A stretch of 60,515 nucleotides of DNA, counting the filler. It is 4 parts of 4 records of this genome, joined end to end, with 100 filler letters (N's around TTAATTAATTAA, not from the genome) between each part and the next. Parts side by side here need not be neighbours in the genome. Positions count along the whole stretch, not along the records: positions 27,020 to 52,817 come from SRR2962707_4455; 3 more parts are not named here. One strand, written 5' to 3'. Positions 27,715 to 52,737 of the stretch are shown here, one piece after another. Below the pieces are notes generated by a model that saw only the letters and a list, made by a program, of their open reading frames with translations, did no database searches and was not told the DNA's origin. The position numbers were made by a program, and so were the translations under genes. Position 1 is the stretch's first letter. Every line of letters begins with the position of its first letter.

Positions 27715-28041
27715 TCAACGCGGCGGGCGTTGCGGCTTGACGCCACTTCCCAGCGCGTTACCCATACGATTGCGCAATGCCGACTGATTGAACTGTCCGG
27801 TCCGGTTGGGCGGCAGGCGGGTGACGTCAGCGGAGTCCAGCGCCGGATTATCCCGTTTGGCCGCCTCGGGAACGGCCGCCGGCATCATCTTCCGCTGCAG
27901 GCAGTCGTAGGGCAGGGCGCGATGGCCGTTCACCTCCACTTCCACACAGGAAGGCTCATCGGCCTCGGACGCGGGCGCTTCCGCCGCGTGTAGCGCTGGC
28001 GCCATCAGTACCAGCCATCCCATGCCTATCCAGTGCTTCAT
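27715..28041 (-). CDS. Small exported conserved hypothetical protein (resembles P. aeruginosa PA0700-type proteins)
   Basis: Signal peptide ending LHA; CVEVEVNG..YDCL Cys pair; FNQSA..NRMGN..PQRP C-terminus; family link recalled from this gene cluster type. Confidence 0.7.
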   Translation of the reverse strand: MKHWIGMGWLVLMAPALHAAEAPASEADEPSCVEVEVNGHRALPYDCLQRKMMPAAVPEAAKRDNPALDSADVTRLPPNRTGQFNQSALRNRMGNALGSGVKPQRPPR

Positions 28042-28085
28042 GTCGTTTCCGTTTTTGATCGGTGAGAGTACCCGCTGCCAGGAGA

Positions 28086-28123
28086 ATGAAAACGCGGTGG
28101 TTTTTCAGTGAATTTTTCATGAC
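28086..28123 (-). promoter_or_regulatory. pho-box-like 11-bp-period direct-repeat array
   Basis: Minus strand GTCAT-gaaaaa-TTCAC-tgaaaa-ACCAC-cgcgtt-TTCAT: four half-site-like units at exact 11-bp spacing, 45-80 bp upstream of the 28041 start. Confidence 0.6.
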
Positions 28124-28233: not shown

Positions 28234-28281
28234 GTGAATTTTTGGTGACAACGGTTCGGTTCCGACGGACTCCCGCCATCT
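28234..28281 (+). promoter_or_regulatory. Putative PhoB + ECF-sigma promoter of the tpsB-exbBD operon
   Basis: GTGAA(28234)-N6-GTGAC(28245)-N7-CGGT(28257)-N16-CATCT(28277); identical spacing upstream of the TpsA gene. Confidence 0.6.
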
Positions 28282-28405: not shown

Positions 28406-30037
28406 ATGCGTGACGCCAACAGAATGAGTGGAATGGCCTGGTTTTTGGGGGGAATGTTCGTGGCAGCCATGACTTTGACATCGTCACTTCATGCTCAACA
28501 AGACGCCACCGGCCATGAGGATCGTACAGAGGCGCCGGCGGAGGCGCCGGGAACGGTGACCATCAATGAGTACATCGTGCGTGGTAACACGGTTTTGGAA
28601 GCGCGTGACATCGAGAAGGCGGTGTACCCCTTTCTCGGGCCGGAACGAAGCCTGGAAGACATCCAGAGCGCGCAAAAAGCTCTGCAAAAAGTATATCAGG
28701 ACAAAGGGTATCAATCCGTTTATGTGGAGTTGCCGGAGCAGCGGGTCAGTGGCGGCGTGGTCTATCTCCAGGTGATCGAAGTCACCGTGGGGCGGGTGCG
28801 CGTGGTCGGCGCCGAGTACCACTCCCCGCTGAAAATCCGCGAGGAAGTGACGGCACTGCGGGAAGGCGTGGTGCCCAATTTCGAACTGGTGCAGGAAGAT
28901 TTGACCAAGGTGAACCGCACCGGCAAGCGGCAGGTAATGCCGGTGGTCAAGGAAGGCGCCATTCCCGGCACCATGGATGTGGACCTGGCCGTGGAGGATC
29001 AGACGCCTTGGAACGGCAGCCTGACCTTGAACAACGATTACAGCGCCGACACCGAAAAACTGCGTACCATCGCCACCCTCGGGCATTCCAACTTGTGGCA
29101 ACGGGGACACAGCATGTCCCTGACCCTGTTCACCGCGCCGGAGAATACCGATAACGCCGAGGTTTGGTCGTTGAGTTACGGCATGCCGCTGTCCGAGCGC
29201 TGGTCCCTGCGCTTCTCCGGTTATACCTCCGACAGTGACGTCAATACCGTGGGCGGCACCAGCGTGTTGGGGCAAGGACTATCCTACGGTGTTTCCGCCA
29301 CCTACAACATTCCGTTCGACGGCACCTGGGGGCATTCCCTCTCCCTCGGCGTTGATTTCAAGGACTTCGATGAGTCGCTGGAATTCGGCGACGCCGAGGA
29401 CACCATCCCCCTGAAATACGCGCCTTTTACCTTTGGCTATAACGGCTACTACTACACCGAAAAAAATCAGGGCTCGATCAATCTGACCCTGGTTACCGCC
29501 ACCAATGAGTTCCCCGGCAACAGCAGCGGCTGGGAAGAGTTCGATTACAAACGGTACCGGGCCAAACCGGATTTCGCCGTGATCAGGGCCGAGGCCAGCA
29601 ACGAGAGGCTGCTGGGCGAGTGGGGGCTGGCGACAAAACTAAGCGCGCAGATGGCGTCCGGCTCCCTGGTTTCCAACGAGCAGTTCGCGGTGGGGGGCGC
29701 CGGCACGGTTCGGGGTTATCTGTCCGCGGAGCAATCCGCCGACGACGGTGTGCTGGCCAGTATTGAGCTGCGCACACCTTCCATCGCCGAGTGGCTGGGG
29801 TCGCCCTGGAGTCTGGTGCGCGCCCATGTCTTCGGTGAAGGCGCCCATCTGACACTGCAAAACCCATTGCCGGAGCAGGACGATGAATTCGACCTGGCCA
29901 GTGTCGGCGTTGGGCTGCGGGCGGAGATCGGTGCCTGGTTGAGCGGACGGCTGGATCTGGGGTACCCGCTTACCGACGCGGAAAACACGGAAAAACACGA
30001 CCCCAGATTGCATTTCAGTATTACCGCCAGTTTCTGA
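28406..30037 (+). CDS. ShlB/FhaC/HecB-family two-partner secretion pore (TpsB; PdtB-like)
   Basis: Signal peptide, POTRA (YIVRGNTVL..AVYPFLG..YQDKGY), NLWQRGH, EQFAVGGAGTVRGY loop-6 motif, C-terminal ..ITASF. Confidence 0.93.
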   Translation: MRDANRMSGMAWFLGGMFVAAMTLTSSLHAQQDATGHEDRTEAPAEAPGTVTINEYIVRGNTVLEARDIEKAVYPFLGPERSLEDIQSAQKALQKVYQDKGYQSVYVELPEQRVSGGVVYLQVIEVTVGRVRVVGAEYHSPLKIREEVTALREGVVPNFELVQEDLTKVNRTGKRQVMPVVKEGAIPGTMDVDLAVEDQTPWNGSLTLNNDYSADTEKLRTIATLGHSNLWQRGHSMSLTLFTAPENTDNAEVWSLSYGMPLSERWSLRFSGYTSDSDVNTVGGTSVLGQGLSYGVSATYNIPFDGTWGHSLSLGVDFKDFDESLEFGDAEDTIPLKYAPFTFGYNGYYYTEKNQGSINLTLVTATNEFPGNSSGWEEFDYKRYRAKPDFAVIRAEASNERLLGEWGLATKLSAQMASGSLVSNEQFAVGGAGTVRGYLSAEQSADDGVLASIELRTPSIAEWLGSPWSLVRAHVFGEGAHLTLQNPLPEQDDEFDLASVGVGLRAEIGAWLSGRLDLGYPLTDAENTEKHDPRLHFSITASF

Positions 30038-30096: not shown

Positions 30097-31989
30097 ATGC
30101 AACAACGCCTGCTGATTTTTCTCATATCCTGCCTGGGTGCGCTGTTGCCCACCCTGGCCCATGCCTGGTGGCAAGACGATTGGAGTTACCGCAAGCAAAT
30201 CACCATCGATACCTCGCCCCAGGGCGCGGCCATCGATCAGCGGGTCGGCCGGGTGCCGCTGCTGGTACGTCTGCATACCGGCAATTTCAGTTTTCAGGAC
30301 GTCCAGGAAAACGGCTCGGATCTGCGCTTTGTGGCGGCGGACGATCAGACCGTTCTCAATCACCAGATTGAAAGCTTCGACGCGCTGTTGGGCGTGGCCT
30401 ACATCTGGGTGGATGTGCCGGCGCTGGAAGCCGGGTCCAGCCAGGATATCTGGATGTACTACGGCAATCCCGACGCGCCGGCCACCAGCAACGGTCAGGC
30501 GGTGTTCGACGCCGATTACACCCTGGTCTATCACTTTGACCAGGCGCCCGGCGCACCCGCCCGTGACGCCACCGCCTACGGCAACAATTCCAGTAACACC
30601 GTGGCGCAAAGCGTCACCGGGGTGATCGGCCAGGCCGCCGCCTTTGCCGGTGGCGAACCGCTGATGGTGGAAGCCGCGCCGTCCCTGGCGACGCCCGCCG
30701 CCGGTCAGTTTTCCTTCAGCGCCTGGGTGCGTGCCGATCAGAATGCCAATGAACAGTTGATCTATGCCCGCCGTGACGCCGGTAATTCGCTGTTGATCGG
30801 TATCAGCGCCGGCCAGCCCTTCGTTGAGGTCAATGGTCAGAGAACGGCGCCAGCGCAACCGCTGGCATCCGGTCAGTGGCAGCATCTGGCGGTGACCGCC
30901 GATGGGCAGCAAGTGGCGTTGTACGTGAATGGCCGCCAGATCAGCAGCTTGCCGGTGGCACTGCCGCCGCTGGCCACCGCCATCGCCTTGGGGGGCGATA
31001 TTCCGGGTTACGCGCCCGCCGAGCCCGTTGCGGAAGAAACCGCGAGTGAAGGGGAGGATGTCGCTACCACCACACCGGCAGCGGTGCCGTCCCGCCACTT
31101 CAATGGCGCTCTGGATGAAGTGCGGATTTCCAAGCAGGCCCGGCCGGCGTCTCTGTTGATGGCGGATTACCAGGCCCAGGGCTCCGAGTCGCGGTTGGTG
31201 GTGTTCGGCGTCGACGAAGAACAGTCCGGCTTCGGCTTCGGCGCGCTCGGCTTCTTGCTGAGCGCGGTACCTATCGACGCCTGGGTCATCATTGGGATTC
31301 TGGTGATCATGATGATCCAGACCTGGTTCGTCATGTACCGGAAGTTCCGCCATACCCGCCGGGTGGACGAGGCCAATGGCCGTTTCCGCGACGAGTTCGC
31401 CCAGGTCGGCACGCAACTGGAAAAACTCGCGGACAGCCCGGAGCTGGAACAGGAACTGGAACACTCATCGCTATGGCAGCTGTACCAAGTGGCGGTGCAT
31501 GAGCTGCGTTTGCGCCGTGCCCAGGGCGCCGATACTTCCAGCATTTCCTCGGAAACCCTGGAAGCGATCCGCGCTTCCATGGACGCCGTTCGTACCCAGC
31601 AGAATCGCGAGCTGAGTTCCCGTCTCGGTGTGCTCTCCAACGCCATCGCCGGCGGCCCCTACATCGGCCTGCTGGGTACGGTGATGGGCATCATGGTGGT
31701 GTTTCTCGGTACCGCCATGGCCGGGGACGTGAACATCAACGCGGTGGCGCCGGGTATGGCCGCCGCCCTGTTGGCCACCGCCATGGGGTTGTTCGTGGCG
31801 ATCCCGGCGCTGTTTGCCTACAACCGCATCAACGGCCGTAACCGCGATATCAGCTCCGATATGCGCGTGTTCCTGGACGAATTCGTCACCCGCCTGGCCG
31901 AGATTCATGGCGCCGGGCAGCGGCCGCCGCAGCCGGCGCAGGCCGGTCATGCCGTGCGCCATGGCATCTCTCAAAGCCCGGTGGTGTAA
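30097..31989 (+). CDS. exbB: DUF2341 + LamG/ConA-like domains fused to a MotA/TolQ/ExbB proton channel
   Basis: Signal ending AHA, WW..DWSYRK, NGSDLRFV, IWVDVP..IWMYYGNP (DUF2341); FSAWVR, WQHLAVT, LYVNG, GALDEVRIS (LamG); GPYIGLLGTVMGIM, ALLATAMGLFVAIPA (ExbB). Confidence 0.92.
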   Translation: MQQRLLIFLISCLGALLPTLAHAWWQDDWSYRKQITIDTSPQGAAIDQRVGRVPLLVRLHTGNFSFQDVQENGSDLRFVAADDQTVLNHQIESFDALLGVAYIWVDVPALEAGSSQDIWMYYGNPDAPATSNGQAVFDADYTLVYHFDQAPGAPARDATAYGNNSSNTVAQSVTGVIGQAAAFAGGEPLMVEAAPSLATPAAGQFSFSAWVRADQNANEQLIYARRDAGNSLLIGISAGQPFVEVNGQRTAPAQPLASGQWQHLAVTADGQQVALYVNGRQISSLPVALPPLATAIALGGDIPGYAPAEPVAEETASEGEDVATTTPAAVPSRHFNGALDEVRISKQARPASLLMADYQAQGSESRLVVFGVDEEQSGFGFGALGFLLSAVPIDAWVIIGILVIMMIQTWFVMYRKFRHTRRVDEANGRFRDEFAQVGTQLEKLADSPELEQELEHSSLWQLYQVAVHELRLRRAQGADTSSISSETLEAIRASMDAVRTQQNRELSSRLGVLSNAIAGGPYIGLLGTVMGIMVVFLGTAMAGDVNINAVAPGMAAALLATAMGLFVAIPALFAYNRINGRNRDISSDMRVFLDEFVTRLAEIHGAGQRPPQPAQAGHAVRHGISQSPVV

Positions 31990-32000
31990 GGAGAACAACG

Positions 32001-32426
32001 ATGGCTTCGGTAAGAACCTCGATGGACGACGATGAAATGGACGGACCGGTGGACGGCATCAATATCACGCCGCTGGTGGATGTGCTCATGGTGGTACTGG
32101 TGATGTTCATCCTCACCGCCACGGCGCAGATCGCGGGCATCAAGGTGGATCTGCCCAAGGCCAGCTCCTCGGTGTCGCTGTCCGAATCCAAGACCAAGGC
32201 TATTTCGGTGAACAACGACGGACAGGTGTTTCTCGATGCCTACCCGGTGACGCTCGCTGAACTGGAGGATCGGTTGCGTACCGAGAAAGCCATGAACCCC
32301 GGCTTTCCGGTGATCGTGCGCGGGGACGCCGCGGTGCAATACCAAAAAGTGGTGCAAGTGCTGGATGTGCTGCGGCGTCTGGATCTCAACCAGGTCGGTC
32401 TGGTGACCGGCAAGCCGCCACAGTGA
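32001..32426 (+). CDS. exbD: Biopolymer transport protein ExbD
   Basis: INITPLVDVLMVVLVMFIL with the conserved TM Asp, KVDLP, VRGD..V.Y..VV.VLD. Confidence 0.95.
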   Translation: MASVRTSMDDDEMDGPVDGINITPLVDVLMVVLVMFILTATAQIAGIKVDLPKASSSVSLSESKTKAISVNNDGQVFLDAYPVTLAELEDRLRTEKAMNPGFPVIVRGDAAVQYQKVVQVLDVLRRLDLNQVGLVTGKPPQ

Positions 32427-33214
32427 TCGATGATAACCGGATAACAGGAAAGACCATGTCGCTGCAGTCACCTCAATCACGGGATTCCGGAACGGCCTCG
32501 GGCAAGCGGCATTCCCTTTCCGCGAGCAAGACATCCCGAACGCGGCGCGGGCCGATGACCTATGTGCGCCTGGCCGTCGGCGCGGTGGTGTTGATTGTTC
32601 TGGGCTGGCTGATCTGGCAATGGGCCAACGATATGAGCGGCGTGCGCCGCCAGGTGCCGCAGGAGCCGATGCTGGTACCGCTGCCTCCGCCGCCGCCGGA
32701 GCCGGAACCAGAGGAAATGAAGGAGCCGGAACCGGAACCCGAACCGGAGGAGATCGTTGAGCCAGAGCCGGAACCCACGCCGGTGGAAGAACCGACGCCG
32801 GAAGAACCGCCTTCACCGTCGGATGATTTGTCCGAGGCCATGCAGATCGATGGTGAAGCTCAGGCCGGTACCGATGCTTTCAATATCGGCGCCGGCAGTG
32901 GTGGCGGCATGGCCGGTTCCGGCACCGGCCGGGTCGGCAACGCCACCTACGGCCAGTACCTCTCCTACGCCTTTCAGCGGGCGCTGCGCGAGGAGCCGTC
33001 GATCCGTCATCTGAGTTACCGGATACAGATCAATCTCTGGCTTAACGAGGCCGGTCAGATCACCCGGGTGCAATTACTCAAGTCCAGTGGTGACCCGGAT
33101 ACGGACGACAAAGTGATCGCCGCCGTGCGTGCCATCCCGGCGCTGGATCAAAAGCCGCCGAAGTCGATGACATTGCCGGTGAAAGTGGCTTTGCAAGGGC
33201 GGCGTCCGGGCTGA
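32423..33214 (+). CDS. TonB-like energy transducer (TM + Glu/Pro-rich linker + TonB C-terminal domain)
   Basis: Single TM, PPPPP-(EP)n linker, C-domain LWLNEAGQITRVQLLKSSGD; follows exbB-exbD; true start may be 32456 or 32556. Confidence 0.88.
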   Translation: MIDDNRITGKTMSLQSPQSRDSGTASGKRHSLSASKTSRTRRGPMTYVRLAVGAVVLIVLGWLIWQWANDMSGVRRQVPQEPMLVPLPPPPPEPEPEEMKEPEPEPEPEEIVEPEPEPTPVEEPTPEEPPSPSDDLSEAMQIDGEAQAGTDAFNIGAGSGGGMAGSGTGRVGNATYGQYLSYAFQRALREEPSIRHLSYRIQINLWLNEAGQITRVQLLKSSGDPDTDDKVIAAVRAIPALDQKPPKSMTLPVKVALQGRRPG

Positions 33215-33275: not shown

Positions 33276-34973
33276 ATGAACATGAAGCGCAATCAGTGGC
33301 TGCTGATGCTGGCCGTGGCGGCGACCTTGAGCGGCCCGGCCGTGGCGCAGGCACCCGCCGAATCCACCGCGCCGGAGGGCAACAGCACCACCGTGCACCT
33401 GATCCGGCTGCTGGTGGAACAGGGGGTAATCACCGATGCCCAGGCCAACGCCTTGCTACAGCAGGCGCGACAGGAGGCCCAGACCGCCAGTCAGCGCCGC
33501 CCCGAACCCGAAGTGCGGGAAGGGGACGTGCGTGTGCCCTACATCCCGGAGGTGGTTCGTGACGAGATTCGCGAGGAAGTCAAACAGGAAGTGATGGCCC
33601 AGGCCAAGGCGGAAAACTGGGCGGCGCCGAATACCTTCCCGGACTGGGTATCGCGGGTGAAGCTGTTTGGTGACGTGCGGGTACGTAATGAGAGCCGGTT
33701 CTTTTCCGGGGATAACATTGATCAACTCGTGGATGGCCAAAAATATAATGAAGATGGCCCGTTTGAAACCAATCTGGGGCCTATCGCTAGTGACTTTCCC
33801 CCCCTGATGAACACCCGTGAAGACCGCACCAACCTGTTGCGGCTCCGTGCCCGTTTCGGTTTGGAAGCGGATCTGGGGGGCAACTGGAGCACCGGTGTCA
33901 GATTGGCCACGGGCAGCAGCAATGGCCCGGTTTCCACTACCCAGACGCTCGGTGGCGGGCTCAGCAAAAAAGACATTTGGCTGGATCAGGGGTGGGTGAA
34001 ATGGGCTCCGGGGATTTGGCGCTTCACCGCTGGGCGCGCGGAGAACCCCTTCGTCTCCACCGACATTCTGTTCTCCGGTGATCTGAGTTTCGATGGTGTG
34101 TCCGCCGGTTTCAAGGACCTTCGGGTCGGTGATCGCGTCGCGATGTTCGGCACCATTGGCGCCTTTCCCCTGGAATACAGCTCCGACTCATGGCCTTCCA
34201 GCAGCCCGGACAAAAGTGATAGTGAGGACAAATGGCTGTTCGGCGCGCAGGTCGGCGCCAACTGGGTGTTCAATCAGGAAGAGCGCCTGACCGCGGCCAT
34301 CGGCTACTACCACTTTGATAACATTCAAGGGCAGCGGTCTTCCGAATGTGAATTGTACAGTGACCCATACCAGTTCTGCGATACGGATTGGTCGCGGCCG
34401 ACCTTCATGCAGAAGGGGAATACCCTGTTCTGGCTGCGCGATATCCAACCCAATCCGGATGCCGACGTCACTTCAATGCCCCAATACCTGGGGTTGGCCT
34501 CGGAATTTCAGCTGTTCGATCTGAACCTGATCTGGGATACACGGGTTTTCAGTGATTACAAACTCAGGTTGGCGGGCAACATCATTTATAACGACGCCTA
34601 TTCCGAACAGGCCATGTGGCGCAATGCCGCCGGCATGATCGTCAACAACTTCGATGAAGACGGCGAATTCGAAAGTGGGCGAACCGCCTGGATGGTTCAT
34701 GCTGCTTTCGGTTCCTCCCTGAAGCTGGACCGGAGGGGGGACTGGCTGACCTTCCTGGGCTACAAACACATTGAGCCGGATGCTTTACCGGATGCCTACA
34801 ACGATTCTTCCTTCCACCTCGGCGGCACCAATGCCAAGGGCTACTACCTGGGCGCGGCTTACGCCTTGAACGAGCGGCTGTACTTCCAGGGCCGCTGGAT
34901 GAGTTCGGAAGAGGTGTATGGGCCGCCGTTGTCCATCGACATCCTGCAACTCGAACTGAATGCCCGGTTCTGA
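33276..34973 (+). CDS. Putative porin (Porin_5-type outer-membrane beta-barrel; PA0696-like)
   Basis: Signal peptide, LIRLLVEQGVIT helical N-terminus, VRVPYIPE, GDVRVR, RLRARFG, FHLGGTNAKGY, C-terminal beta-signal LELNARF. Confidence 0.85.
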   Translation: MNMKRNQWLLMLAVAATLSGPAVAQAPAESTAPEGNSTTVHLIRLLVEQGVITDAQANALLQQARQEAQTASQRRPEPEVREGDVRVPYIPEVVRDEIREEVKQEVMAQAKAENWAAPNTFPDWVSRVKLFGDVRVRNESRFFSGDNIDQLVDGQKYNEDGPFETNLGPIASDFPPLMNTREDRTNLLRLRARFGLEADLGGNWSTGVRLATGSSNGPVSTTQTLGGGLSKKDIWLDQGWVKWAPGIWRFTAGRAENPFVSTDILFSGDLSFDGVSAGFKDLRVGDRVAMFGTIGAFPLEYSSDSWPSSSPDKSDSEDKWLFGAQVGANWVFNQEERLTAAIGYYHFDNIQGQRSSECELYSDPYQFCDTDWSRPTFMQKGNTLFWLRDIQPNPDADVTSMPQYLGLASEFQLFDLNLIWDTRVFSDYKLRLAGNIIYNDAYSEQAMWRNAAGMIVNNFDEDGEFESGRTAWMVHAAFGSSLKLDRRGDWLTFLGYKHIEPDALPDAYNDSSFHLGGTNAKGYYLGAAYALNERLYFQGRWMSSEEVYGPPLSIDILQLELNARF

Positions 34974-35002
34974 TCGACCAGGCGATGAAGGGAGGTAATA
35001 CC

Positions 35003-35671
35003 ATGAAGAAGGCGGATAACGTCAAAACAAAGTGGTTTCCCGCGACGCTGACATTGCTGGTTCTGGCCTTGCCGGCCTGGGCACAGGCCCAGCAGTCCAG
35101 CCTGGAAGAACGTCTGCGTACCGAGCTGCGCAACACCACCCAGCAATTGCGGGACCTGCAATCCCGGCAAGCGGGCCTGGAGGCGGCCCGTTCCAACGCG
35201 GAAGTGCAACGTGATGCAGCCAGGGCCCAGGTGGCCAAATTGCAGGCCCGGCTCGATGCGGTGGAAGGGAATCTGGCCTCCCAGCAACGCAGCAGTCAAG
35301 CACGCATCGCCGCCAGCCAGGAACGCGCCCAGCAGATGCGCGACGCCTACGATGAGTTGTTGACCCTGGCCAAAGGCAAGGAAACGGAACGGCTGACGCT
35401 GCAGAAAGCGTTGCAACAACGTACCGCCGAATTGCAGACCTGCGTCAGCCGCAACGAGGAGATGTATATGGCGGGCAAGGAGATTCTGTCCGCTTATGAA
35501 AGCCTCGGTGCCGGCAGCCTGTTCAAGATGCGTCAGCCGCTGGCGACCTCGTCGCGGGTGGAGTTCGAGAACAGGGCCCAGGAAATGGGAGACCGGCTGT
35601 ATAACGCCCAGGTCGGCGTGGTGCGGTCGGACCAGGACGGTAACGCCGGTGCGGCGGAAAACGACGGCTGA
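35003..35671 (+). CDS. Exported coiled-coil protein (PA0697-like)
   Basis: GGAGG RBS, signal peptide ending AQA, long Q/A/L heptad helix (SLEERLRTELR..C..RN..Y..EIL..Y). Confidence 0.75.
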   Translation: MKKADNVKTKWFPATLTLLVLALPAWAQAQQSSLEERLRTELRNTTQQLRDLQSRQAGLEAARSNAEVQRDAARAQVAKLQARLDAVEGNLASQQRSSQARIAASQERAQQMRDAYDELLTLAKGKETERLTLQKALQQRTAELQTCVSRNEEMYMAGKEILSAYESLGAGSLFKMRQPLATSSRVEFENRAQEMGDRLYNAQVGVVRSDQDGNAGAAENDG

Positions 35672-35712: not shown

Positions 35713-36204
35713 ATGAGCGAAGAAAACCACATCATCGACACTCTGCCTCTTGAGGAACTCAGTGCTCTGTTGCAGGAAGCCGGTTATCGCACCAATGAAA
35801 CCGAGCATAACGGCAGCAAGCAACTGCTCAGCGCCAGTCAGGGCATCGGCTTTGCCGTGCGCCCCGGTAATATGCTGGGGGAAGGGCTTCTGGACTTCAC
35901 CATCAGCTGCGCTTTGCGCATCCAGGGCGAGTTGCCGGAAGGGCTGATCCCGGCCTGGAATCGCGGCAAGCGTTTCTCGAGATTGAGCCGGCATGGTGAT
36001 TTTCTGGTACTGGAAATGGATGTGATCGTGGCTGGCGGTGTGCGCCGCGCCCATGTGCGCGCCAACCTGGAAATCTGGGACCGCTTGTTGCAGGAGTTCC
36101 TGCTCTATCTGCGCAATTACCGTGACGAGAACCGTAATGAGAGCCACGATAACGACGATGCCTCGGAACATGAGCAGGCGATAAGCACGGAAGCGGCGGA
36201 GTGA
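35713..36204 (+). CDS. YbjN-domain (T3SS-chaperone-like fold) protein
   Basis: LLQEAGYR..LLSASQGIGFAVR..WNRGKRFSRL..LEMDVIVAGGV..W pattern; position matches PA0698 in the cluster. Confidence 0.75.
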   Translation: MSEENHIIDTLPLEELSALLQEAGYRTNETEHNGSKQLLSASQGIGFAVRPGNMLGEGLLDFTISCALRIQGELPEGLIPAWNRGKRFSRLSRHGDFLVLEMDVIVAGGVRRAHVRANLEIWDRLLQEFLLYLRNYRDENRNESHDNDDASEHEQAISTEAAE

Positions 36205-37227: not shown

Positions 37228-37253
37228 CAGCCTTGGCCGAAAAAGGAACCCGT

Positions 37254-39886: not shown

Positions 39887-39954
39887 GCAGGCTCTGTATG
39901 TCAAATCCGTGTCGTGCACTGTAGAACCCGACACTGCCTGGATTGTGCCCCTTG

Positions 39955-40002
39955 ATGAACTTTCCGTGAAAAAACGGCGGTCGTGGGGCGGGCCGATCAT
40001 CT
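39955..40002 (+). promoter_or_regulatory. Putative PhoB + ECF-sigma promoter of the TpsA gene (repeat pair also faces the sigma operon)
   Basis: ATGAA(39955)-N6-GTGAA(39966)-N7-CGGT(39978)-N16-CATCT(39998); same spacing as 28234-28281. Confidence 0.6.
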
Positions 40003-46100: not shown

Positions 46101-49100
46101 ACACTGATAGTGGTACCGGTCTGCTGGTGATCAGTAACGATCTGATGCAGCTCGGCGCGGCCGAAGGTCCTGGCAGTGTGCGCATCGAGGATGGGGCGGC
46201 GCTGCACGGCGAAGGCACCGTGGCGCTGGCGGCGCCCGGCGGTATCACCGTCGGCGATATCGATCTGAGCGCAAGGGATCTGCTGCTCTCGCTGGAAGAC
46301 ATTAATATTGGCACTGACGACGCCTTGGCCGAGGCGGAGGCGAGGGGTGTGCTGTCCGACGGCTGGCGGCTGAACCAAGGTATCCTGGATGGTTTGCTCG
46401 CTTTGGGGGAACTGGAGAGCTTCAGTCTGCAGGCGGCCGGCGCCATTAATTTCTTCGGTCCCGTGACTTTGGATACCTACGACCCCGCCACCGGCGAATC
46501 CCGCGCCGCCCTGCGTTTTATCTCCCCGGCCATTTACGGTCTGGGCGGTGAAGGCGACACCGTGACGATCCGTACCGACCGCTTCAACTGGAGCGGGCTG
46601 GGTGAAAATCGGGGGACCCCTTTCGTTCCGGATTATGTCTCGGTGACGCCGGGCGAGGTTATCGATGGCGGCGCGGGGACCGGCAGCGGCGGCTTCCTGG
46701 TGGACGCCAATGAAGTGGTGTTTGGCTTCAATGGTCTGGTGGGCGATCAAACCGCCAACGCCACCCTGGAGCGTCTGATGTTGGGCTTCGGTGAGGTCAC
46801 TTTCCAGGCTCGGGAAAGGATCACCAGCGACCTGTACGGTGCTTTGTCCGTTTACCGGCAGGATAGCGATGGCACACGCAGCGGCGGTAATCTGACCCTG
46901 AGCTCCCCGGTGCTCACCGGCCAGGCCGGTTCCGAAATGACCTACCGGACCGGCGGCAACCTGCTGGTTACCCGGCCTGCCGATGCAGCCGCCGTGGACC
47001 CGGCGGACCTGGATCTGGGCGCTCAACTGACCTTGGAAGGCAACAGTGTCCGTGTCGAGGGCAGCATCATCGCCCCCAGCGGCAAGGTGGCCATCGAAGC
47101 CACCGAGGATCTGCTGCTGGCCGACGGCAGCCTGATCAACGTGGCCGGCCGGGCGGTGGAGTTCTTCGATGTCACCCGGTACAGCTTCGGTGGCGCGGTC
47201 AGCCTGGAAAGCGTTGAAGGCAATGTCCAGCAGGTCGCGGGCTCCCGTATCGATGTGTCCGCGCCATACAGCGACGCGGGCAAACTGGAAGCCACCGCCG
47301 TCAACGGCACCGTGGACCTGGCTGGTGAGCTGGTTGCCCGTAATCCAGGGGAGGACCCGGAAGGGGAGGGCGAAGGCGGCACCCTACGTATCAAGGCCAA
47401 TACCTTGCCCGGTTTCGTGGCGCTCAATCAACGCCTCACCGACGGCGGCTTTGATTACCTGCGCGGCTTCGAAACCAACGAAGGCGACCTGACTCTGGGC
47501 GAGGAAGTCCGCGCCCGTCATATCGAGGCCACCGCCAACGGCGGTGACCTGATCGTCAACGGCAATCTGCGCGCTGGTGGCGACTACGCTGGCAGTATTT
47601 ACCTGGCCGCCGCCAATGATCTGAGGGTGGAGAACGGCGCTACCCTGGACGCCAGCGGCGATCAACTCAAGCTGGACAGCTACGGCGACCCCATCGAAGG
47701 CAGCAACCGGGCCGTTATCAATCTGACCAGCCGGGATGGCCGTCTGGTGCTGGGTGATAACGTGACGTTGGATGTGAGCGCGGGCGGTGAAGCCCGTGGC
47801 ACCGTCGATCTGAATGCCCGCCGCCTGGGTGCACCTTCTGAAACATCGGCAACCGGCAACGATGTGGCGGTGGAGGCCGGTGACAACCTGACGGTCTCCG
47901 GCGCCAAGCGGGTGTCGGTGAACGGATTCTGGAGCTACGACGATGCTCCGGATGACACCGATCCGGAGCACGGCAACACCCAGGTGGTCAACCAGGAGTA
48001 TCTGGATCGGATCCATGATGACAGTAAGGACTTTATCAACGCGGCGTTGGCCAATGACGAGTTGCAACAGCGCTTGGCGAGCCTGAAAGACGCCGCCGGC
48101 GAGGCCTTCTCTCTGCGCCCGGGCGTGGAGATCGTCTCCGCCACCGAGGACGGCAATCTGCGTATCGATGGTGATCTGGATTTTGCCGGATACCGCTACG
48201 GACCGGACGCCGATGACGTTGTGTACGGTAGCGGCACCGCCGGGGTGTTCGTGATGCGCGCCGGGGGTGACCTTGATGTGAATGGCAATGTCACCGATGG
48301 TTTCTATCGGCCACCGACCACTCCGGATGACAATTACAATCCAGTTGTTGATATAGATCCCTCCCTGGTGGATGGGAATAACCGCCTATTGGCACCATAT
48401 GTAGTCGATGAAGAAATGACGTTAAAGGCAGGCTGGGACCTGGCTATGGTCTACACCTATGGTGGGTCCTTGCCGTTTGATCTTAATGTTAATACAAGAA
48501 TCATAGTCAGAAGCGGAGGGGTGTTACCTGTTGACGTAATCACAACTAGAGCTCAGCTGCGTGATACGACCCTCACGGCTCCGATCTTGCTTCCTGAAGG
48601 CGCAACAGTAACAGACCGAAACGGGACTGCTTATGTCGGCCGGATTGATTCTGGAACCTACATAGAAAATATTCTGTTACCGGCCGGTTCTGTTTTTTCA
48701 GCCGGTAGCGAAATATCTGGCATGGCTCAGATCTTTATTGATTCACTCACGCTTCCTGCTGGAAGCGACCTATTCGGCCTGCAGATTCAGAGGGCGGATG
48801 AGTTTAACGAGTCGAAAACGCTGCTTCCGCAGGATCTGTTGCCTCGAGGAATGACGATAAATGGATTCGAAGGAAGCCTCCAGACCCAGAGAATTGTTGC
48901 TGTTGCGTCCTTGTTGCCGGAAGGAATGCAAAGCTGGGATCTGAAGCTGGTCGCCGGAGCGGACCTGGCCGCGGCGGACCGCCGTTCAACACTCGAGGGC
49001 AGCGAGGGTGACCTGACGCTGAGTAACCCTTTCCAGGTGAGACATCATTCGGGGAGCGCCGATACCCTGGAGGGAATCAGTGTGATCCGTACCGGCAGCG

Positions 49101-51886
49101 GTGACCTGGAGTTGATCGCTGCCCGGGATTATCAGCAGGAGACCCCCTTCGGGGTCTATACCGCCGGAACCGCCGCCGAGGCAAGTGGCGCTCCTGAACG
49201 CCAGAGAGATCCTGATACCTTGCCCAGTGATACCTACGTTCCCGAGGAACCCGGGGAAGAAGATGATCCTGAGGCAGAGGACAAGCCCACCTATCTGAGT
49301 GTTGCCGAAGCCACACCCGGCTCTTTCGCCACGGGTGGTGGCAACGTGCTGGTGCGCGTGGGCCGGGATATGAGGGGCAACGCTTACAACAGCGAAGACT
49401 TGCAGAAGGGAGAGATTTCCGACTGGTTGTGGACCTGGAGTGATCCGGAGAGCGGCGCCCAGGCCTGGTGGCTCAATACCGGCAGTTATGGTGCCGCTGC
49501 CGAACTGATTACCTTTGACGGTATCGGTACTCTCGGTGGCGGTAATCTCTCTGTATCGGTGGGACGGGATTACGGGATTCATGATGATCAGACCGGCGCA
49601 TTGACGCTGACAGTGGGCTCATCGGGGTGGGTGGACTCGACCGGAAATCGCCGGCAATACGGTGGCGGTGATCTGCGCCTGGATGTGAGTGAGAGCATCA
49701 ATCAGGTTGACGCCGCGACCGTTACCGCGAAAGACGGGACCGTAAGTAATCTGCGCGGTGATGTCGTTTTGAAAGCTGGTGAAATCGGACAAGTTTGGAA
49801 AACCTACCAACTTGGCTCAGCTCTGATAACCGATCCGAGGCCGGATGAGGCACTGCTGAACGTCGACAAGCAGGTTCAAGGCGGACTCAACGTGGTCTTG
49901 GGCGATGCCCAGGCCCGGGTACATACCTACGGTGACCAGATTGTCAACGCGGAGAACCTGAACAGCGGCGATGTGAAGCTGTGGACCGAACTGACCGAGG
50001 CTATGCTGTTCAGTGCCGGCGGGAATATGGGGGTAGGAGCAGTATCAAATGACGCCATACTTCTTCCCGCCCGTTTCAGTGTGGTCGCCGCGGAGGGCAC
50101 GATTTATGGCAATGCTTACACTCCTAATGGTTCCCCTTTGGGATGGGTGGCCGACACGTCCGCGGATGGGTGGCTGGAATTTCTGGCCGGAGACGCCATC
50201 TACAACCTGGGGCTGTCTTCAGCCTATGACCCGGATTTGCTCGGTACAGAGGTATCCCCCGCACGGTTCTATGCCCGTGATGGCGATATCTACCAGCTCT
50301 ACTATGGCTACTATGGCATCCGGAGTGAGCGTCTTATCAATCAGGCCGGGCGTCCGGCTCATGTTCGCGCCGGCCGGGATATCGTTGAATATGGGGGCGC
50401 AACCGCGGGGGGCCAGCCATCGGCGCTGGGGCACTATGGACCGACGGACGTTTCGATCATCGAGGCGGGGCGCGATCTGATTCACATCAACACCAAGGTA
50501 ATGGGCGAAGGCACGCTGGAACTGACCGCGGGACGCGGCTTCTATCAGGCAGATCGGGGGCAGATTCGTACTCTCGGGGCTTTTGGTGATGTCGTCGGCG
50601 GTGATCAGAACGGCGGCGCTGACATCGTCATCAATGTCGGCATGGGCGCGTCCGGCCCGGATTATCAGGCGCTCATCGATCGCTATCTGGATCCGGCCAA
50701 TCTGGCCGAGGCCGGAAGGCCTCTGGCCGAGCAACCGGACAAGGTCGTCAAGGTGTACGACGAAGAACTGAGGGCCTGGCTGGAACAGCGTTTCGGGCTA
50801 ACGGGTCTGGACCTCACCGATGCCCTGGCCTATTTCCAGAATCTGGCACCGGAGCAGCAGCGTATCTTCTTGCGCGAGCTCTATTACGCGGAACTGCGGG
50901 AAGGGGGACGGGAGTACACGGATTCCGAAGGACCCCGTTTCGGCAGCTACCTGCGTGGCCGCCGCGTGATCGAGACCCTGCTGCCGGAGATGGACAGCGA
51001 GGCCGGCACCTCGGGCTATGACGGTGACTTCACCATGTTCACGACTCAGGATGGGAATACCGAGCGCTCCGGTCTGATCCGCACCGAAGGCGGCGGCGAC
51101 ATCCAGATGCTGGTGCCCGGCGGTGATTTGATCATCGGCCTGGAATCAGTGCGCCCGGAGAGGGGCGACAATGGCATCCTCACTCAGGGCAGCGGCGATA
51201 TTCAGCTGTTCAGCCAGGGCGATATCGCGCTCGGTCTCTCGCGCATCATGACCACCTACGGCGGCGACATCTTCGCCTGGTCCAACGCTGGTGACATCAA
51301 CGCCGGCCGCGGCGCCAAGACCACCCTGGTGTACACGCCGCCGCGCCGCACCTACGACAGTCTGGGTAATGTCACCCTGTCACCATCCGTGCCGAGTACC
51401 GGCGCGGGCATAGCCACCCTGGCACCGATCCCGGAAGTGCCGCCAGGAGACATCGATCTGATCGCGCCGCTGGGCGTGATCGATGCTGGCGAGGCGGGTA
51501 TCCGTGTCTCCGGCAGCATCAATGTGGCGGCGTTGCAGGTAGTGAACGCGGAAAATATCCAGGTGCAAGGGGATTCCACCGGCCTGCCGGCAGTGGCGGC
51601 GGTGAATGTTGGGGCTCTGACCAGTGCCAGCAACGCCGCCTCCAGTGCGGTACAGGCGGCGGAGCAGGTCGGCCGGCGCTATCAGCAACAACAACCCTCA
51701 ATCATCAACGTGGAGATTCTCGGCTACGGCGAGGAACGTCTGGAAGCGGGAGGCGGTCGGACCAGCGCCGCCCCGGCCTCTCGTCCTGGGGAGGGGATGG
51801 TACAGGTGTTGGGGGCGGGGCCGTTGTCGGCGAACCAGACGGGCATGTTGACGCCCGCTGAGCGCCGGGGACTCGAGTCGCGCTGA
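40166..51886 (+). CDS. Giant filamentous-haemagglutinin-family TpsA exoprotein with C-terminal DUF3739 (PdtA-like), 3906 aa
   Basis: Signal peptide ending QAEA; TPS domain (AILNWETFNVG, LNRVND..PSQIQG, VNRNGVVF); long G/S/T/D-rich beta-helix repeats; C-terminal SRIMTTYGGDI..DINAGRGAKT..GAGIATL..DLIAPLGVIDAGEAGIRVSG..AALQVVNAENI. Confidence 0.93.
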   Translation: MLTKNTRPARRTPVRSVISRKPLALAVASILAVGAGQAEASSPRPFSPEWFAAARGAAAQNRANTAPTARPLAQQRQARERLQHSINNVGRTAAAVAAQRAAQEAARKAAQQAASNIPNGLGEGGLKVDVNPDTAGWLGAKDPTQTTKDGHTTVRIEQTADKAILNWETFNVGRDTTVDFDQQANWAALNRVNDPNARPSQIQGRIQGDGTVMIVNRNGVVFSGSSQVNVRNLVAAAADISDQQFTERGLYVDTNGSQPTFTTAAGNVTVDAGARITTHEPESVTQGGGYVLLMGREVNNAGEITTRRGQTTLAAGEDFYIRKGAGTEANQASTTRGNEVASTWEAGSDAGTATNEGLIVAREGDITLTGHDVRQQGVAMATTTVNTRGTVHLLNSASDTEGKVTLGEGAVTTVVIEDDGETALDNQRDALIESSAELDGLRDDMITGAFDNIGLMADRRDQSRVEIVSGGDVVFEKDSLTLATGGQIAVDAGRRTQLNAGSELDVSGSVGVKVAMESNNVLINVQGNEQRDSPDNRDNGGLNNGDVWVDRRNLIFVPAGTGGYETDRWYTAGGLLEVSGYLDTQGHGIGEWSAAGGTVLLGGSEVVTQTGSSVNLSGGTLDVQTGYIAKTWLKGADGRLYDAATAPASMLYTGIYQGYERVSERWGQTDAWRNPLIAPERQLENGYTVGRDAGTLIINAPTAVLEGDIVAEVFQGERQNQAQDAGRDSYQQAQNRVARRGRLAVGQYGQYGLENAYGSDIRIGEFDDISEQLTLESDLSERLNTVWLDAGRLNEQRLGGLDLVSGGSISVESDLTLAEGGQLRLVSGQVAVDAAVTARGGDTALTNILMPAGTSLTPIAFTDEDGNSELHLTENGQLDARGLWRNGLLESGENWKQAYVDGGDVTIEGTQDVTLAEGSQVDVSSGAALKADGELLGGRGGDITLSASVALNGSIAPDAALSTNGTLRGYGVDGGGVLTIESGQGQAIVLGGTPGNSEEASGEEPASMLRLDEALLQSGFSAYDINGRGGLTVSGGADLAVMMPVLRRTDQAARANSLNQALALWLPPLYLEDPLAGTAQQRRGASLTLTSERRGVFGDIQVQSGAEISVDPGQSIVISGGNTVAVEGTLRAPGGEIAILSSFRYEGTLVIGETAVLDAAGRAYVMTGPAGRRYGEVWDGGTVTLGAYRPEEMNSGTGFLELSDAFVVVREGALIDVSGTRADLDLGTSGSTSVASSGGGLAMRSTSGIYFDGTLRADAGGDDADGGRLDLMLEGNAIYTSDPDDPRAVLRNITISQNGDSGYGEELTFGQARIAVNDLESMGIDHLALWARDGILFDGDTELALGGSLSLSAATLAAASDTPAISVALDAPYVTLAGRTTLPSSADGGGIFPRLDYDNWAPLSAATSDSSRFTVTADLIDLGEGALTFGAQGRYETPAGYAEVDLPGFASVTLHSRGDIRLTNADVMTGKELRFISERLYPTTHSSNLIRVGLSGEGRDADPIEDAVLRFEREGEGDVAAPLSVFGFLTLQAPRIEQAGVLLAPLGRIDFSRDGTERNLKYNTSPRYFSNLDMDVQLEAGSITSISAAGLVLPYGYTTDGLKYFYNGSEVVYDRSGGAGSQGDEQSQRAWGGIYFDSRTFAASEGAVVDVSAGGELRGVGFTSGRGGSVDILNTALVNASPWHAGDSNARVYAIVPGLAEGQAPLDPALDTGSKVGQQIAIGDGVPGLAAGTYTLLPAEYALMPGGFRVELGSDAAQYAVPGIATAASGVYRTVVETTNALTGAAGKLPLWASVMSGDTVRRYASYNETTLSQWMATQLARFGDTSIMQPLLPEQARPLVFDFTNAELTGKAAFQFAGTLVNERVEGGRGGLISFHGNHLEVLGEGSDGTDDRVSLDAGQLNDLDASVLALGLTPPGATGTARSSGSTTVRSGATLRAGTLLLAGNGADAVVVESGAVLDSRERGAAGWTAENGFLIDTDSGTGLLVISNDLMQLGAAEGPGSVRIEDGAALHGEGTVALAAPGGITVGDIDLSARDLLLSLEDINIGTDDALAEAEARGVLSDGWRLNQGILDGLLALGELESFSLQAAGAINFFGPVTLDTYDPATGESRAALRFISPAIYGLGGEGDTVTIRTDRFNWSGLGENRGTPFVPDYVSVTPGEVIDGGAGTGSGGFLVDANEVVFGFNGLVGDQTANATLERLMLGFGEVTFQARERITSDLYGALSVYRQDSDGTRSGGNLTLSSPVLTGQAGSEMTYRTGGNLLVTRPADAAAVDPADLDLGAQLTLEGNSVRVEGSIIAPSGKVAIEATEDLLLADGSLINVAGRAVEFFDVTRYSFGGAVSLESVEGNVQQVAGSRIDVSAPYSDAGKLEATAVNGTVDLAGELVARNPGEDPEGEGEGGTLRIKANTLPGFVALNQRLTDGGFDYLRGFETNEGDLTLGEEVRARHIEATANGGDLIVNGNLRAGGDYAGSIYLAAANDLRVENGATLDASGDQLKLDSYGDPIEGSNRAVINLTSRDGRLVLGDNVTLDVSAGGEARGTVDLNARRLGAPSETSATGNDVAVEAGDNLTVSGAKRVSVNGFWSYDDAPDDTDPEHGNTQVVNQEYLDRIHDDSKDFINAALANDELQQRLASLKDAAGEAFSLRPGVEIVSATEDGNLRIDGDLDFAGYRYGPDADDVVYGSGTAGVFVMRAGGDLDVNGNVTDGFYRPPTTPDDNYNPVVDIDPSLVDGNNRLLAPYVVDEEMTLKAGWDLAMVYTYGGSLPFDLNVNTRIIVRSGGVLPVDVITTRAQLRDTTLTAPILLPEGATVTDRNGTAYVGRIDSGTYIENILLPAGSVFSAGSEISGMAQIFIDSLTLPAGSDLFGLQIQRADEFNESKTLLPQDLLPRGMTINGFEGSLQTQRIVAVASLLPEGMQSWDLKLVAGADLAAADRRSTLEGSEGDLTLSNPFQVRHHSGSADTLEGISVIRTGSGDLELIAARDYQQETPFGVYTAGTAAEASGAPERQRDPDTLPSDTYVPEEPGEEDDPEAEDKPTYLSVAEATPGSFATGGGNVLVRVGRDMRGNAYNSEDLQKGEISDWLWTWSDPESGAQAWWLNTGSYGAAAELITFDGIGTLGGGNLSVSVGRDYGIHDDQTGALTLTVGSSGWVDSTGNRRQYGGGDLRLDVSESINQVDAATVTAKDGTVSNLRGDVVLKAGEIGQVWKTYQLGSALITDPRPDEALLNVDKQVQGGLNVVLGDAQARVHTYGDQIVNAENLNSGDVKLWTELTEAMLFSAGGNMGVGAVSNDAILLPARFSVVAAEGTIYGNAYTPNGSPLGWVADTSADGWLEFLAGDAIYNLGLSSAYDPDLLGTEVSPARFYARDGDIYQLYYGYYGIRSERLINQAGRPAHVRAGRDIVEYGGATAGGQPSALGHYGPTDVSIIEAGRDLIHINTKVMGEGTLELTAGRGFYQADRGQIRTLGAFGDVVGGDQNGGADIVINVGMGASGPDYQALIDRYLDPANLAEAGRPLAEQPDKVVKVYDEELRAWLEQRFGLTGLDLTDALAYFQNLAPEQQRIFLRELYYAELREGGREYTDSEGPRFGSYLRGRRVIETLLPEMDSEAGTSGYDGDFTMFTTQDGNTERSGLIRTEGGGDIQMLVPGGDLIIGLESVRPERGDNGILTQGSGDIQLFSQGDIALGLSRIMTTYGGDIFAWSNAGDINAGRGAKTTLVYTPPRRTYDSLGNVTLSPSVPSTGAGIATLAPIPEVPPGDIDLIAPLGVIDAGEAGIRVSGSINVAALQVVNAENIQVQGDSTGLPAVAAVNVGALTSASNAASSAVQAAEQVGRRYQQQQPSIINVEILGYGEERLEAGGGRTSAAPASRPGEGMVQVLGAGPLSANQTGMLTPAERRGLESR

Positions 51887-51945
51887 TCATCTCGGTTGAA
51901 CCTCGGAGCAAGCCCGCTCCGGGGACATTGCCAGGAGGCACAAGG

Positions 51946-52737
51946 ATGTTCTACGACCGTGACGCGGCCAGTCAGATATTGGCGATGACCCGGGTGACCA
52001 CGCTGGCGCGCCTGCATGCCGCCACCACGTATCTGATTCAGATGCACGGGTTTCGCTTTTACTATTTTTCGCTGCGCGGGCAGCATGCGCTGACAGGCCG
52101 CGACCCGGTCACCTTGCACAATTTGCCGGTCAATGGCCGCCGGCCTGAAATGGATAGAGAGTCGGATCAGGATCCCCTTGTTCATTACGCCGCTACTCGT
52201 ACCCTGCCCATGGATTGGAAGCAGATCATGGCGCTGCCCGGTTACCAGCACCGGGGTTATCTGCGCGTCATGGCGGCGCGGGCCCAACACGGACTATTAA
52301 GTGGTTGCACCGTGCCCTTGAGTCAGGCCAGTGGCGTTTTGGCGCGGCTGGATTTGATCTGTGATCATGATGACGAGGAAGCGGATCTCTGTATTCGCCG
52401 CTACCTGCCATACGCTTCTTTGCTGGGACAGGTCCTGTTGGATAAAACCCGGGGTCTGACCCGGCAAGAAGACGACGACCTGATGGAGCCCGATGGCGGC
52501 ACACCGCTCACTCAACGGGAACGGGAGTGTTTGCTTTGGGCCAGTGAAGGCAAGACCAACGCGGAAATCGGTGCTCTGCTCGGCATCAGCGAACGTACCG
52601 TGGTGTATCACGTTCACCATGCCTGTGAAAAACTCCATGCCCGCAATCGCCAACACGCGGTCACCAAGGCCATCCTGTCTCGAAGGCTGTTTGGTCCCAC
52701 CAGTGATAGTTCCCGGCTGGTTGGTAACATGGTTTAG
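51946..52737 (+). CDS. LuxR-family regulator with an autoinducer-binding-like domain (LuxR solo)
   Basis: GGAGG RBS; GF.FY, DPLV, P..W, HGL.SG.TVPL N-domain; LTQRERECLLWASEGKT..EI..LLGISERTV HTH; no luxI beside it. Confidence 0.9.
   Translation: MFYDRDAASQILAMTRVTTLARLHAATTYLIQMHGFRFYYFSLRGQHALTGRDPVTLHNLPVNGRRPEMDRESDQDPLVHYAATRTLPMDWKQIMALPGYQHRGYLRVMAARAQHGLLSGCTVPLSQASGVLARLDLICDHDDEEADLCIRRYLPYASLLGQVLLDKTRGLTRQEDDDLMEPDGGTPLTQRERECLLWASEGKTNAEIGALLGISERTVVYHVHHACEKLHARNRQHAVTKAILSRRLFGPTSDSSRLVGNMV

Follow-up and report, generated by a model that had tools for sequence, protein, structure and literature searches.

A two-partner secretion locus with a Ton-type motor in an Alloalcanivorax-like bacterium, and a possible surface-receptor role for its passenger

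The locus, its host and its promoters

We describe here a two-partner secretion (TPS) locus with a linked Ton-type proton motor, found in a window of 60,515 nucleotides (the whole stretch of DNA analyzed, filler included) that was put together from four contigs, which are separated by N44-12mer-N44 linkers at 18110–18209, 26920–27019 and 52818–52917. The block occupies nearly all of the third contig (27020–52817, 25.8 kb); the second linker forms the left edge of this contig, and the third cuts the locus directly 5′ of a lapA-like gene. An earlier note, generated by a model from the sequence alone, had read the block as a rearranged form of the Pseudomonas aeruginosa sigma-VreI (PUMA3) regulon in a probably non-Pseudomonas host. 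Every open reading frame (ORF) and domain that it listed was recovered by Pfam, NCBIfam and ORF reading, and the gene set does correspond to that regulon, with orthologues of P. aeruginosa genes at 40–79% identity. These identities were measured against a P. aeruginosa-like locus that spans the 3′ part of pdtA to the PA0701 region and carries the exact PAO1 phdA promoter probe.

The first operon lies on the plus strand and begins with tpsB (28406–30037; Pfam POTRA_2 and ShlB; 60% identity), which encodes TpsB/PdtB, an Omp85-family transporter. It is followed by exbB (30097–31989; 65%), whose product ExbB2 has a periplasmic DUF2341-LamG head (Pfam DUF2341-LamG-MotA/ExbB), by the gene for ExbD2 (32001–32426; Pfam; 79%), by that for TonB4, with a membrane anchor, a Pro-rich linker and a TolA-like C-domain (32423–33214; Pfam TonB_2; 55%), and by a Porin_5/PA0696 gene (33276–34973; Pfam E 3e-198; 55%). 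The passenger gene tpsA (40166–51886, plus strand) encodes TpsA/PdtA, a protein of 3906 amino acids (aa) with a TPS domain (PF05860 E 1e-29, and TIGR01901) behind a signal peptide read from the sequence, a long β-helical body, DUF3739, a linker and a tail, as judged from Pfam, a model of the C-terminus and composition; its C-terminal part is 40% identical to that of the comparison locus. On the minus strand between them lie vreR (37597–38649; FecR-type anti-sigma factor, Pfam FecR and DUF4880; start probably near 38580), vreI (38577–39374; extracytoplasmic function (ECF) sigma factor by Pfam and NCBIfam; start probably near 39134) and vreA (39131–40009; start at or after 39886), whose product has a signal peptide, an STN domain (Pfam) and a TolA-like C-domain with a Cys pair. 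This vreAIR set is of the PUMA3 type, in which VreA joins STN and TolA-like domains and has no barrel. The rearrangement pointed out in the earlier note is genuine, in that TpsA lies about 10 kb from TpsB and is divergent from vreAIR, and 8 of 10 named-genome loci, including all 8 Alcanivorax/Alloalcanivorax records, have the same layout.

The block contig is 90–97% identical to three named Alcanivorax/Alloalcanivorax records, and its porin is identical (100%) to the one in a named Alcanivorax xiamenensis record. To judge from these matches the host, a marine bacterium, is an Alloalcanivorax-like gammaproteobacterium and, as the earlier note had supposed, not a Pseudomonas. The nearest genome, G001 (100% complete), matches the block at 95–97% DNA identity and the first and last contigs in short patches only, at 65–78%; by this comparison those contigs come from organisms other than the block's host, and any claim about neighborhood that crosses a contig join in the window is unsafe.

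Two promoters stand out on the plus strand, one before the tpsB operon (28234–28281) and one before tpsA (39955–40002). Each combines a PhoB box with a sigma-VreI-type promoter and consists of two 11-bp-spaced repeats, a CGGT box and a CATCT box, and both are conserved in relatives. The motif was derived by alignment with those relatives and the search pattern was drawn from the two sites in the window. The published PAO1 pdtA and phdA promoter probes (supplement of PMC4971064) served for comparison: the tpsB site has the layout of the PphdA probe, and the tpsA site has the motif and spacing of the PpdtA probe. Given this match, the locus is likely to be under low-phosphate, PhoB/sigma-VreI control. 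The reversed pattern gave 0 sites in 5 genomes. Scoring the window with a simple Pho-box model of E. coli type brought up no site, and under a relaxed pattern the 1.13 Mb of loci from the 19 genomes introduced below contain only 5 sites, so this promoter is not recognizable in most distant hosts.

The core, its optional parts and the TpsA tail

The main genome set consisted of 401 genomes drawn across the phylum; since these genomes are related, the counts that follow are not independent trials. DUF3739 occurs in 19 of them, and strong matches to the porin (E<1e-60) and to the DUF2341-LamG head of ExbB (E≤2e-36) occur in the same 19, with weak matches in 4 (about 1e-13) and 15 more, respectively. 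The order tpsB-exbB-exbD-tonB-porin is whole in 14 of the 19. Among the exceptions tpsA follows tpsB in G028 and G173, a contig end cuts the operon in G319, and in G298 the locus is split with the motor trio intact elsewhere in the genome; in G365 and the remaining genomes the operon is intact, on either strand. In the host family DUF3739 is present in 16 of 58 genomes and the porin in 15, the single miss being a contig end inside exbB, and among further DUF3739 genomes from two other families 23 of 24 have the porin and the ExbB head. The exception there, G618, has only a tpsA frame of 794–819 aa and is the sole case of module loss outside an assembly gap. The reverse direction, a porin without TpsA, was examined in the sets of 401 and 58; sub-cut-off DUF3739 matches (G532, G723) were left out of the counts, and G028, G208 and G298 were not recounted as new.

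The remaining parts are optional. Among the 19 genomes, adjacent type II secretion system (T2SS) genes are found in 8, a LapA-like gene within the fetched stretch in 12 and a full vreAIR in 14; G060 has a VreR match and 4 have no part of vreAIR. Of the genes considered as chaperones, the coiled-coil gene is present in 13 of 18 assessable genomes and those for YbjN and the peptidyl-prolyl isomerase (PPIase) in 8 each. Thus the linkage of the core survives rearrangement, splitting of the locus and loss of the regulators, and Hxc, LapA, PPIase, YbjN and phdA come and go. The proposal that TpsA, TpsB, the Ton proteins and the porin form one unit independent of Hxc is borne out by these distributions, and DUF3739 passengers commonly lacking the Ton/porin module were looked for across the genomes and not seen; the chaperones, which had been counted as part of the same machine, do not belong to its core.

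One porin operon can accompany several passengers: G242, G400 and G319 have 2–4 tpsA copies, each beside a vreAIR, and this holds for three of the four copies in G426. G208 has two porin operons. In one clade the operon contains two ExbD paralogues (G535:C131:14928-15779; G613:C24:88800-89615; G568:C1:497134-497956), which suggests a heterodimeric axle.

The transmembrane Asp of ExbD is kept in 19 of 19 aligned sequences and the channel Thr motifs of ExbB are kept; ExbB2 matches TolQ and ExbB structures at E 3e-25 to 1e-15, and the sole structural match of the TonB4 profile is HasB (E 0.0015). The DUF2341 domain is listed as a motor appendage of unknown function (PMC12505986). TpsB matches CdiB (E 5e-10), and in the aligned homologues POTRA1 is preceded by no more than a short linker, too small to accommodate the H1 plug helix known from FhaC and CdiB, so TpsB apparently lacks it. 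The AlphaFold2 model of the porin (mean predicted local distance difference test, pLDDT, 75.7) has 16 strands, no plug and periplasmic helices; its best fold match is OmpM1 (8bym; Foldseek E 5e-14; Z 25.8, root-mean-square deviation 3.4, 309 residues aligned), and it matches OprP with Z 20.3. No 22-stranded plugged barrel was found by Pfam among the block's genes. In the porin N-terminus (33348–33650) a conserved V-x-Y-x-P motif accompanies a helical hairpin and a long helix, and this region is a candidate trimer stalk or second docking site for TonB4.

TpsA has no Cys. Its residues from about 2600 to 3200 (47966–49765) are only 58–68% identical to the G001 allele, against 86–100% in the other bins, and form a hypervariable block that is a candidate ligand-binding region; compared with PDB sequences it gave no convincing match (best E 0.46). 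The porin also varies more than its surroundings, being 100% identical in G438 (locus L070) and 79% in G001, G425 and G426 despite the 95–97% DNA identity between block and G001, a pattern that points to allele exchange at this surface protein as in the variable block of TpsA.

In the model an Ala-rich helix and then a disordered tail come after the β-rich C-terminal region of TpsA, which ends near residue 3806; a fold search with this model gave no match at E≤0.001. Within the tail, C-terminal to the poorly conserved Ala-rich linker, lies a hydrophobic, TonB-box-like strand ending in (L/I/T/F)G, which we call element 1 (residues 3844–3855; 51695–51730) and which is found in 56 of 56 tails. 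It is disordered when modelled alone and is retained in genomes that lack VreA and VreR, and many tails stop 2–8 residues past it. By length beyond element 1 the tails fall into three classes, of 2–32 residues (26 tails), of 40–66 residues with a second motif, element 2 (27 tails), and of 117–128 residues (3 tails). In TpsA of the window element 2 covers about residues 3873–3906 (51782–51883), the place that an STN domain occupies in the fusion proteins described below, and the PdtA-like tail of the P. aeruginosa-like locus has both elements. Length was used for the classes in place of an element-2 pattern that matched 23 of the 27 long tails. Eleven of 20 host-family tails (a G001 repeat and near-duplicates) were left out of the set; G554 was missed by the extraction, and its tail is short.

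The C-domain of VreA is homologous to that of TonB4 (hhalign 97.5%), and the TolA-like domain of VreA was proposed to bind a partner in the outer membrane (Llamas 2009; PMC2729926). VreA comes in two types, one with a Cys pair encoded beside tpsA and one Cys-less encoded beside the tpsB operon, and some genomes have both. These types go with the tails. All 17 long tails checked are accompanied by Cys-pair VreA, and of the 26 short tails 21 have no VreA, 5 have the Cys-less type and none has the Cys-pair type. This pairing, predicted before the new tails were seen, held in 24 of 24 new genomes, and in a quick tree three short tails are nested among long ones.

In three alphaproteobacterial genomes (G653, G708 and G618) an STN domain lies C-terminal of element 1 in TpsA itself (hhalign to VreA 98.6%). 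None of the three has a full-length VreA match, and in G653 and G708 vreI-vreR lies directly 5′ of tpsB. A search of 1.84 billion representatives found the fused tail matched end to end by 10 clusters at 50%; 6 of these are proteins of 4000–4500 aa, Pfam STN is found in 9, and 5 are complete TPS+DUF3739+STN proteins. Named members are Pelagerythrobacter marensis and a Hyphococcus, the tail of the latter matching the profile and not Pfam STN. The known site of action of STN domains, on FecR-type anti-sigma factors, is the periplasm (PMC11637429), so these fusions argue that the C-terminus of TpsA is likely periplasmic and that TpsA may feed the relay.

A prediction of the complex between the TonB4 C-domain (97 aa) and TpsA residues 3821–3864 scored 0.60, 0.60 and 0.61, against 0.02 for the best of three controls, with contact agreement of at least 91% and partner pLDDT of at least 56. 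This is a weak pass: 51 of 78 solved pairs reached the mark, as did 2 of 108 mismatched ones, and scores at or below 0.60 at the pass were found for 5 of the 78 solved pairs and for all 4 passing mismatches of 180. We give about an even chance to the idea that TonB4 grips the TpsA tail.

A proposed Ton-coupled passenger receptor, and other readings

What is observed is a core that does not vary, a set of optional genes, the two promoters, the conserved strand in the tail and the fusion of STN to TpsA. The reading that we favor, at even chances, is a phosphate-starvation, Ton-coupled two-partner system whose passenger would act as a surface receptor tethered by its tail, with VreA as a detached adaptor. 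PhoB and sigma-VreI, whose regulation of these genes has been demonstrated in PAO1, would switch on tpsA and the tpsB-exbB-exbD-tonB-porin operon. TpsB would export TpsA N-terminus first, as export of PdtA by PdtB is reported for PAO1, where the two are a functional TPS pair (PMC7035377), and the C-terminal tail would remain in the periplasm with the Ala-rich helix perhaps in the TpsB pore. Element 1 would be the equivalent of a TonB box, bound by the TolA-like domain of TonB4 and pulled by the ExbB2/ExbD2 proton motor. An STN domain would then relay the state of TpsA to VreR and so free sigma-VreI; it would be supplied either by fusion to the tail, as in some Alphaproteobacteria, or by VreA, whose domain paralogous to the TonB4 C-domain could grip the tail. 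TpsA and VreA together would mirror a TonB-dependent transducer, split in two and placed at the C-terminus; one set of motor, TpsB and porin would serve several TpsAs, each with its own vreAIR, and the porin would be an obligatory partner, either as a stalked anchor or as a channel for what TpsA captures. In PAO1, pdtA is induced 3–40-fold in co-culture with human cells (PMC7035377).

For the receptor role of TpsA with VreA as its adaptor, taken alone, we would claim a little less than an even chance. Equally tentative is the more general idea that DUF3739 TpsAs are an undescribed class of trans-envelope machine, a passenger threaded through its transporter, pulled by a motor through a C-terminal box and acting as a contact- or ligand-sensing ECF sigma transducer, in which case PdtA could be the missing outer receptor of PUMA3 and VreA its detached half. 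PdtA is also reported (Faure 2014) to be processed, its C-terminal part remaining at the outer membrane, and this would agree with a tethered tail.

A number of observations weigh against this reading. Deletion of vreA in PAO1 left both expression of the regulon in low phosphate and virulence in zebrafish unchanged, the authors concluding that VreA may not be needed (PMC4971064; PMC7035377), and under vreI overexpression mutants in tpsA, tpsB, tonB4 and PA0696 matched the wild type in virulence (PMC2729926). The low-phosphate test was made without the inducing signal and vreI overexpression bypassed the relay; the result obtained in vivo with vreA does pose a genuine problem for a receptor. 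At least 25 genomes carry the module without a full-length VreA match, so signalling is an add-on and not part of the core. The three genome-derived fusions form a single clade in a quick tree and may go back to one evolutionary event. The association of tail and VreA types leaves 10 of the 27 long tails untyped, has G490 as the single positive among the new genomes, and in G226 and G208 uses VreA typing from the fetched loci only. The element-1 pattern was composed after the tails had been inspected, and the membrane helix of TonB4 does not have the His that is a motif of canonical TonB. Finally, a weak pass in the complex prediction errs more often than not, except where the pairing was already probable a priori; this one gave no interface, made no use of our own alignments, covers a disordered peptide (a class outside the calibration), may echo solved complexes of TonB or TolA with peptides, and does not distinguish TonB4 from VreA as the partner of the tail.

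The motor might instead serve export only, gripping the tail so that a 400-kDa adhesin is threaded, held or released in the manner of SiiAB and SiiE, with vreAIR answering some other cue. The motor and element 1 are universal and vreAIR is not, the weak TonB4-tail prediction would fit equally, vreA has no phenotype in PAO1 (PMC4971064; PMC7035377), and SiiAB appears in a motor survey as a 5:2 motor with a role in secretion (PMC12204202). We nevertheless think this unlikely: it leaves unexplained why STN is fused to TpsA where vreA is missing, why there is one vreAIR per tpsA copy and why tail length goes with VreA type, and classical TPS needs no proton motive force. Slightly less probable still, in our judgment, is capture and import in the manner of HxuABC, in which TpsA would bind or strip a phosphorus substrate and TonB4 would energize the porin through its stalk, and not TpsA, for import. 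The Pho-box promoters, the LapA/DING-like gene in 12 of the 19 genomes, the obligatory porin with its conserved strand-like stalk motif and its resemblance to OprP among others (Z 20.3), the hypervariable block of TpsA and the HxuA/B/C precedent (PMC5422565) all suit it. The modelled 16-stranded barrel, however, has no plug for TonB to remove, its best fold match OmpM1 is a tethering porin, and element 1 and the STN fusion would go unexplained; capture and import can also coexist with a tethered receptor.

It is quite improbable that the locus is an ordinary TPS adhesin and a physically separate Ton/porin operon held together by shared regulation or transfer. PdtA and PdtB have been described as a functional TPS pair (PMC7035377), single mutants had no phenotype (PMC2729926), and the patchy spread suggests transfer as a block. 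On the other hand, co-occurrence outlasts rearrangement, split loci and regulator loss, whereas co-regulated passengers of the regulon come and go, and G618, where alone the module is missing for a reason other than an assembly gap, has a truncated tpsA frame.

Taken alone, the locus is a typical representative of a family that is known but unexplained, and its value lies in the comparison. Occurrence outside Pseudomonas, which might have seemed new, was recorded for Burkholderia, Rhodopseudomonas and Janthinobacterium by Llamas 2009 (PMC2729926). With P. aeruginosa PUMA3 (PMC2729926, PMC4971064, PMC7035377) it shares the orthologous gene set, operon order, promoter architecture and tail elements; it differs in having no adjacent hxc, no phdA and vreAIR inverted between operon and tpsA, and, as seen in relatives, a lapA-like gene 3′ of tpsA and two LuxR solos. 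Like the TonB-dependent transducers FecA-FecR-FecI and FoxA-FoxR-FoxI, the system has, in the fusion proteins, STN beside a TonB-box-like strand, and it has a FecR-type anti-sigma factor, ExbB/ExbD/TonB and an ECF sigma factor that raises expression of its own receptor. Unlike FecA and FoxA, it has no 22-stranded plugged barrel, its proposed receptor is a TPS passenger, and control would be by PhoB and not Fur; STN is on a separate VreA in the window and covalently joined to TpsA in relatives, where the order box-then-STN mirrors the STN-then-box of FoxA or FecA.

In the standard account, two-partner secretion needs only two proteins and no energy source, and cell-surface signalling is left to TonB-dependent barrels. 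A passenger family hardly ever found without a proton motor, and able to carry a signalling domain on its tail, would join the two. Classical systems (FHA/FhaC, HMW1/HMW1B, CdrA/CdrB and HxuA/HxuB with HxuC) share the TPS domain, the β-helical passenger and the Omp85 transporter with POTRA domains, and C-terminal retention of the passenger is known for HMW1 and CdrA; the present system differs in its obligatory linkage to a proton motor and porin, a TpsB apparently without H1 and a TpsA without a Cys hook. ExbB has 0 occurrences in the searched passages of a 2017 TPS review (PMC5422565). SiiAB of the Salmonella SPI4 type I system, GldLM (type IX) and Agl-Glt likewise couple a 5:2 proton motor to a large surface adhesin or to its secretion (PMC12204202), by other secretion routes and with no TPS passenger and no STN/FecR relay. 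Stalked trimeric porins such as OmpM1 (Veillonella), DcaP and OprP share the barrel and the N-terminal periplasmic helices, a likeness drawn from the fold model at about 15% identity.

As of 2020 the Ton genes were described as "still uncharacterized" and the function of VreA as unknown (PMC7035377), and the parts seen of a 2025 motor survey (PMC12204202) make no mention of the DUF3739-linked Ton system. Our literature search, in which subscription papers and supplements are thinly covered, found no paper linking TpsA to TonB4 or with the tail motif or a TpsA-STN fusion. What is new here is the conserved tail strand, the weak TonB4-tail docking and the TpsA-STN fusions, and these offer testable answers to questions that have stood in P. 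aeruginosa since 2009: the partner of the TolA-like domain of VreA, the role of TonB4 and the entry point of the sigma-VreI signal.

Accessory genes and the flanks of the locus

Downstream of the porin the plus strand carries genes for an exported coiled-coil protein that is PA0697-like and semi-conserved (34985–35671; 48% identity), a PA0698-like YbjN-family protein (35713–36204; Pfam; 61%) and a PA0699-like PpiC-type PPIase (36262–37227; Pfam; 46%), the last two accessory. A small lipoprotein-like ORF of 105 aa (37233–37550) is found in the closest relatives only (loci L070–L072, not L073–L079). At the left edge, on the minus strand, lies an accessory gene for a 108-aa exported protein with a Cys pair (27715–28041). 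The earlier note had seen a PA0700-like gene moved and flipped. Neither the 108-aa nor the 105-aa ORF has a match in the P. aeruginosa-like locus from the 3′ part of pdtA to the PA0701 region, with no counterpart at the position of PA0700, and this identity was rejected for both. The 108-aa product belongs to a 90% cluster that has a member named putative PigB, and its gene is more likely PigB, which we take to be PA0673, the gene preceding vreA in P. aeruginosa. Its homologues occur in 14 of the 19 genomes at variable positions, divergent from tpsB in 5, so its placement here is not special.

An accessory LuxR solo with an autoinducer domain (51928–52737, plus strand; Pfam) is the last gene before the contig break; relatives have two such solos, one on either side of the lapA-like gene, and this is the first. 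Immediately past luxR, G001 carries a LapA/DING-like gene (PBP_like_2), then another luxR and the gene for a 1519-aa phosphatase; the LapA/DING-like gene lies between the two LuxR solos (L005:8945-16381, G001:C22), and the 1519-aa exported protein joins phosphodiester glycosidase, Ig-like and purple acid phosphatase domains. A lapA-like gene is also found 3′ of the locus in G426 and G430. It had been remarked that the contig has neither T2SS nor phosphatase genes: the lack of an adjacent Hxc stands, and the lack of a phosphatase arises because the contig break ends the block before the lapA-like gene, as G001 makes clear. In G001 no Hxc cluster or phdA adjoins the locus; its three secretins are PilQ, one of RcpA type and a single, unlinked GspD on another contig.

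A third promoter site lies about 500 bp 5′ of gspN-gspC-gspD in G001 and G438. Co-regulation of the T2SS in trans was considered, and the site was rejected as evidence for it, since G426 has this site at the head of another vreAIR-tpsA cassette, its second, located between ssb and gspN (G426:C1:4164229-4177907). G001 and G438 retain just a 230-bp stub of that cassette, so that a sigma-VreI promoter (G001:C2:66032-66079, L104) still stands in front of the T2SS secretin genes.

A plasmid search gave 3 distant TonB matches, and two Klebsiella plasmids (H1, H2) have a TonB4-like gene, 53% over the C-domain. The left contigs of the window look alphaproteobacterial, with hemC-hemD-mitofilin-like-hemY, and the first also carries a chloramphenicol-acetyltransferase-family gene (16754–17398) after a TypA/BipA fragment, unrelated to the block.

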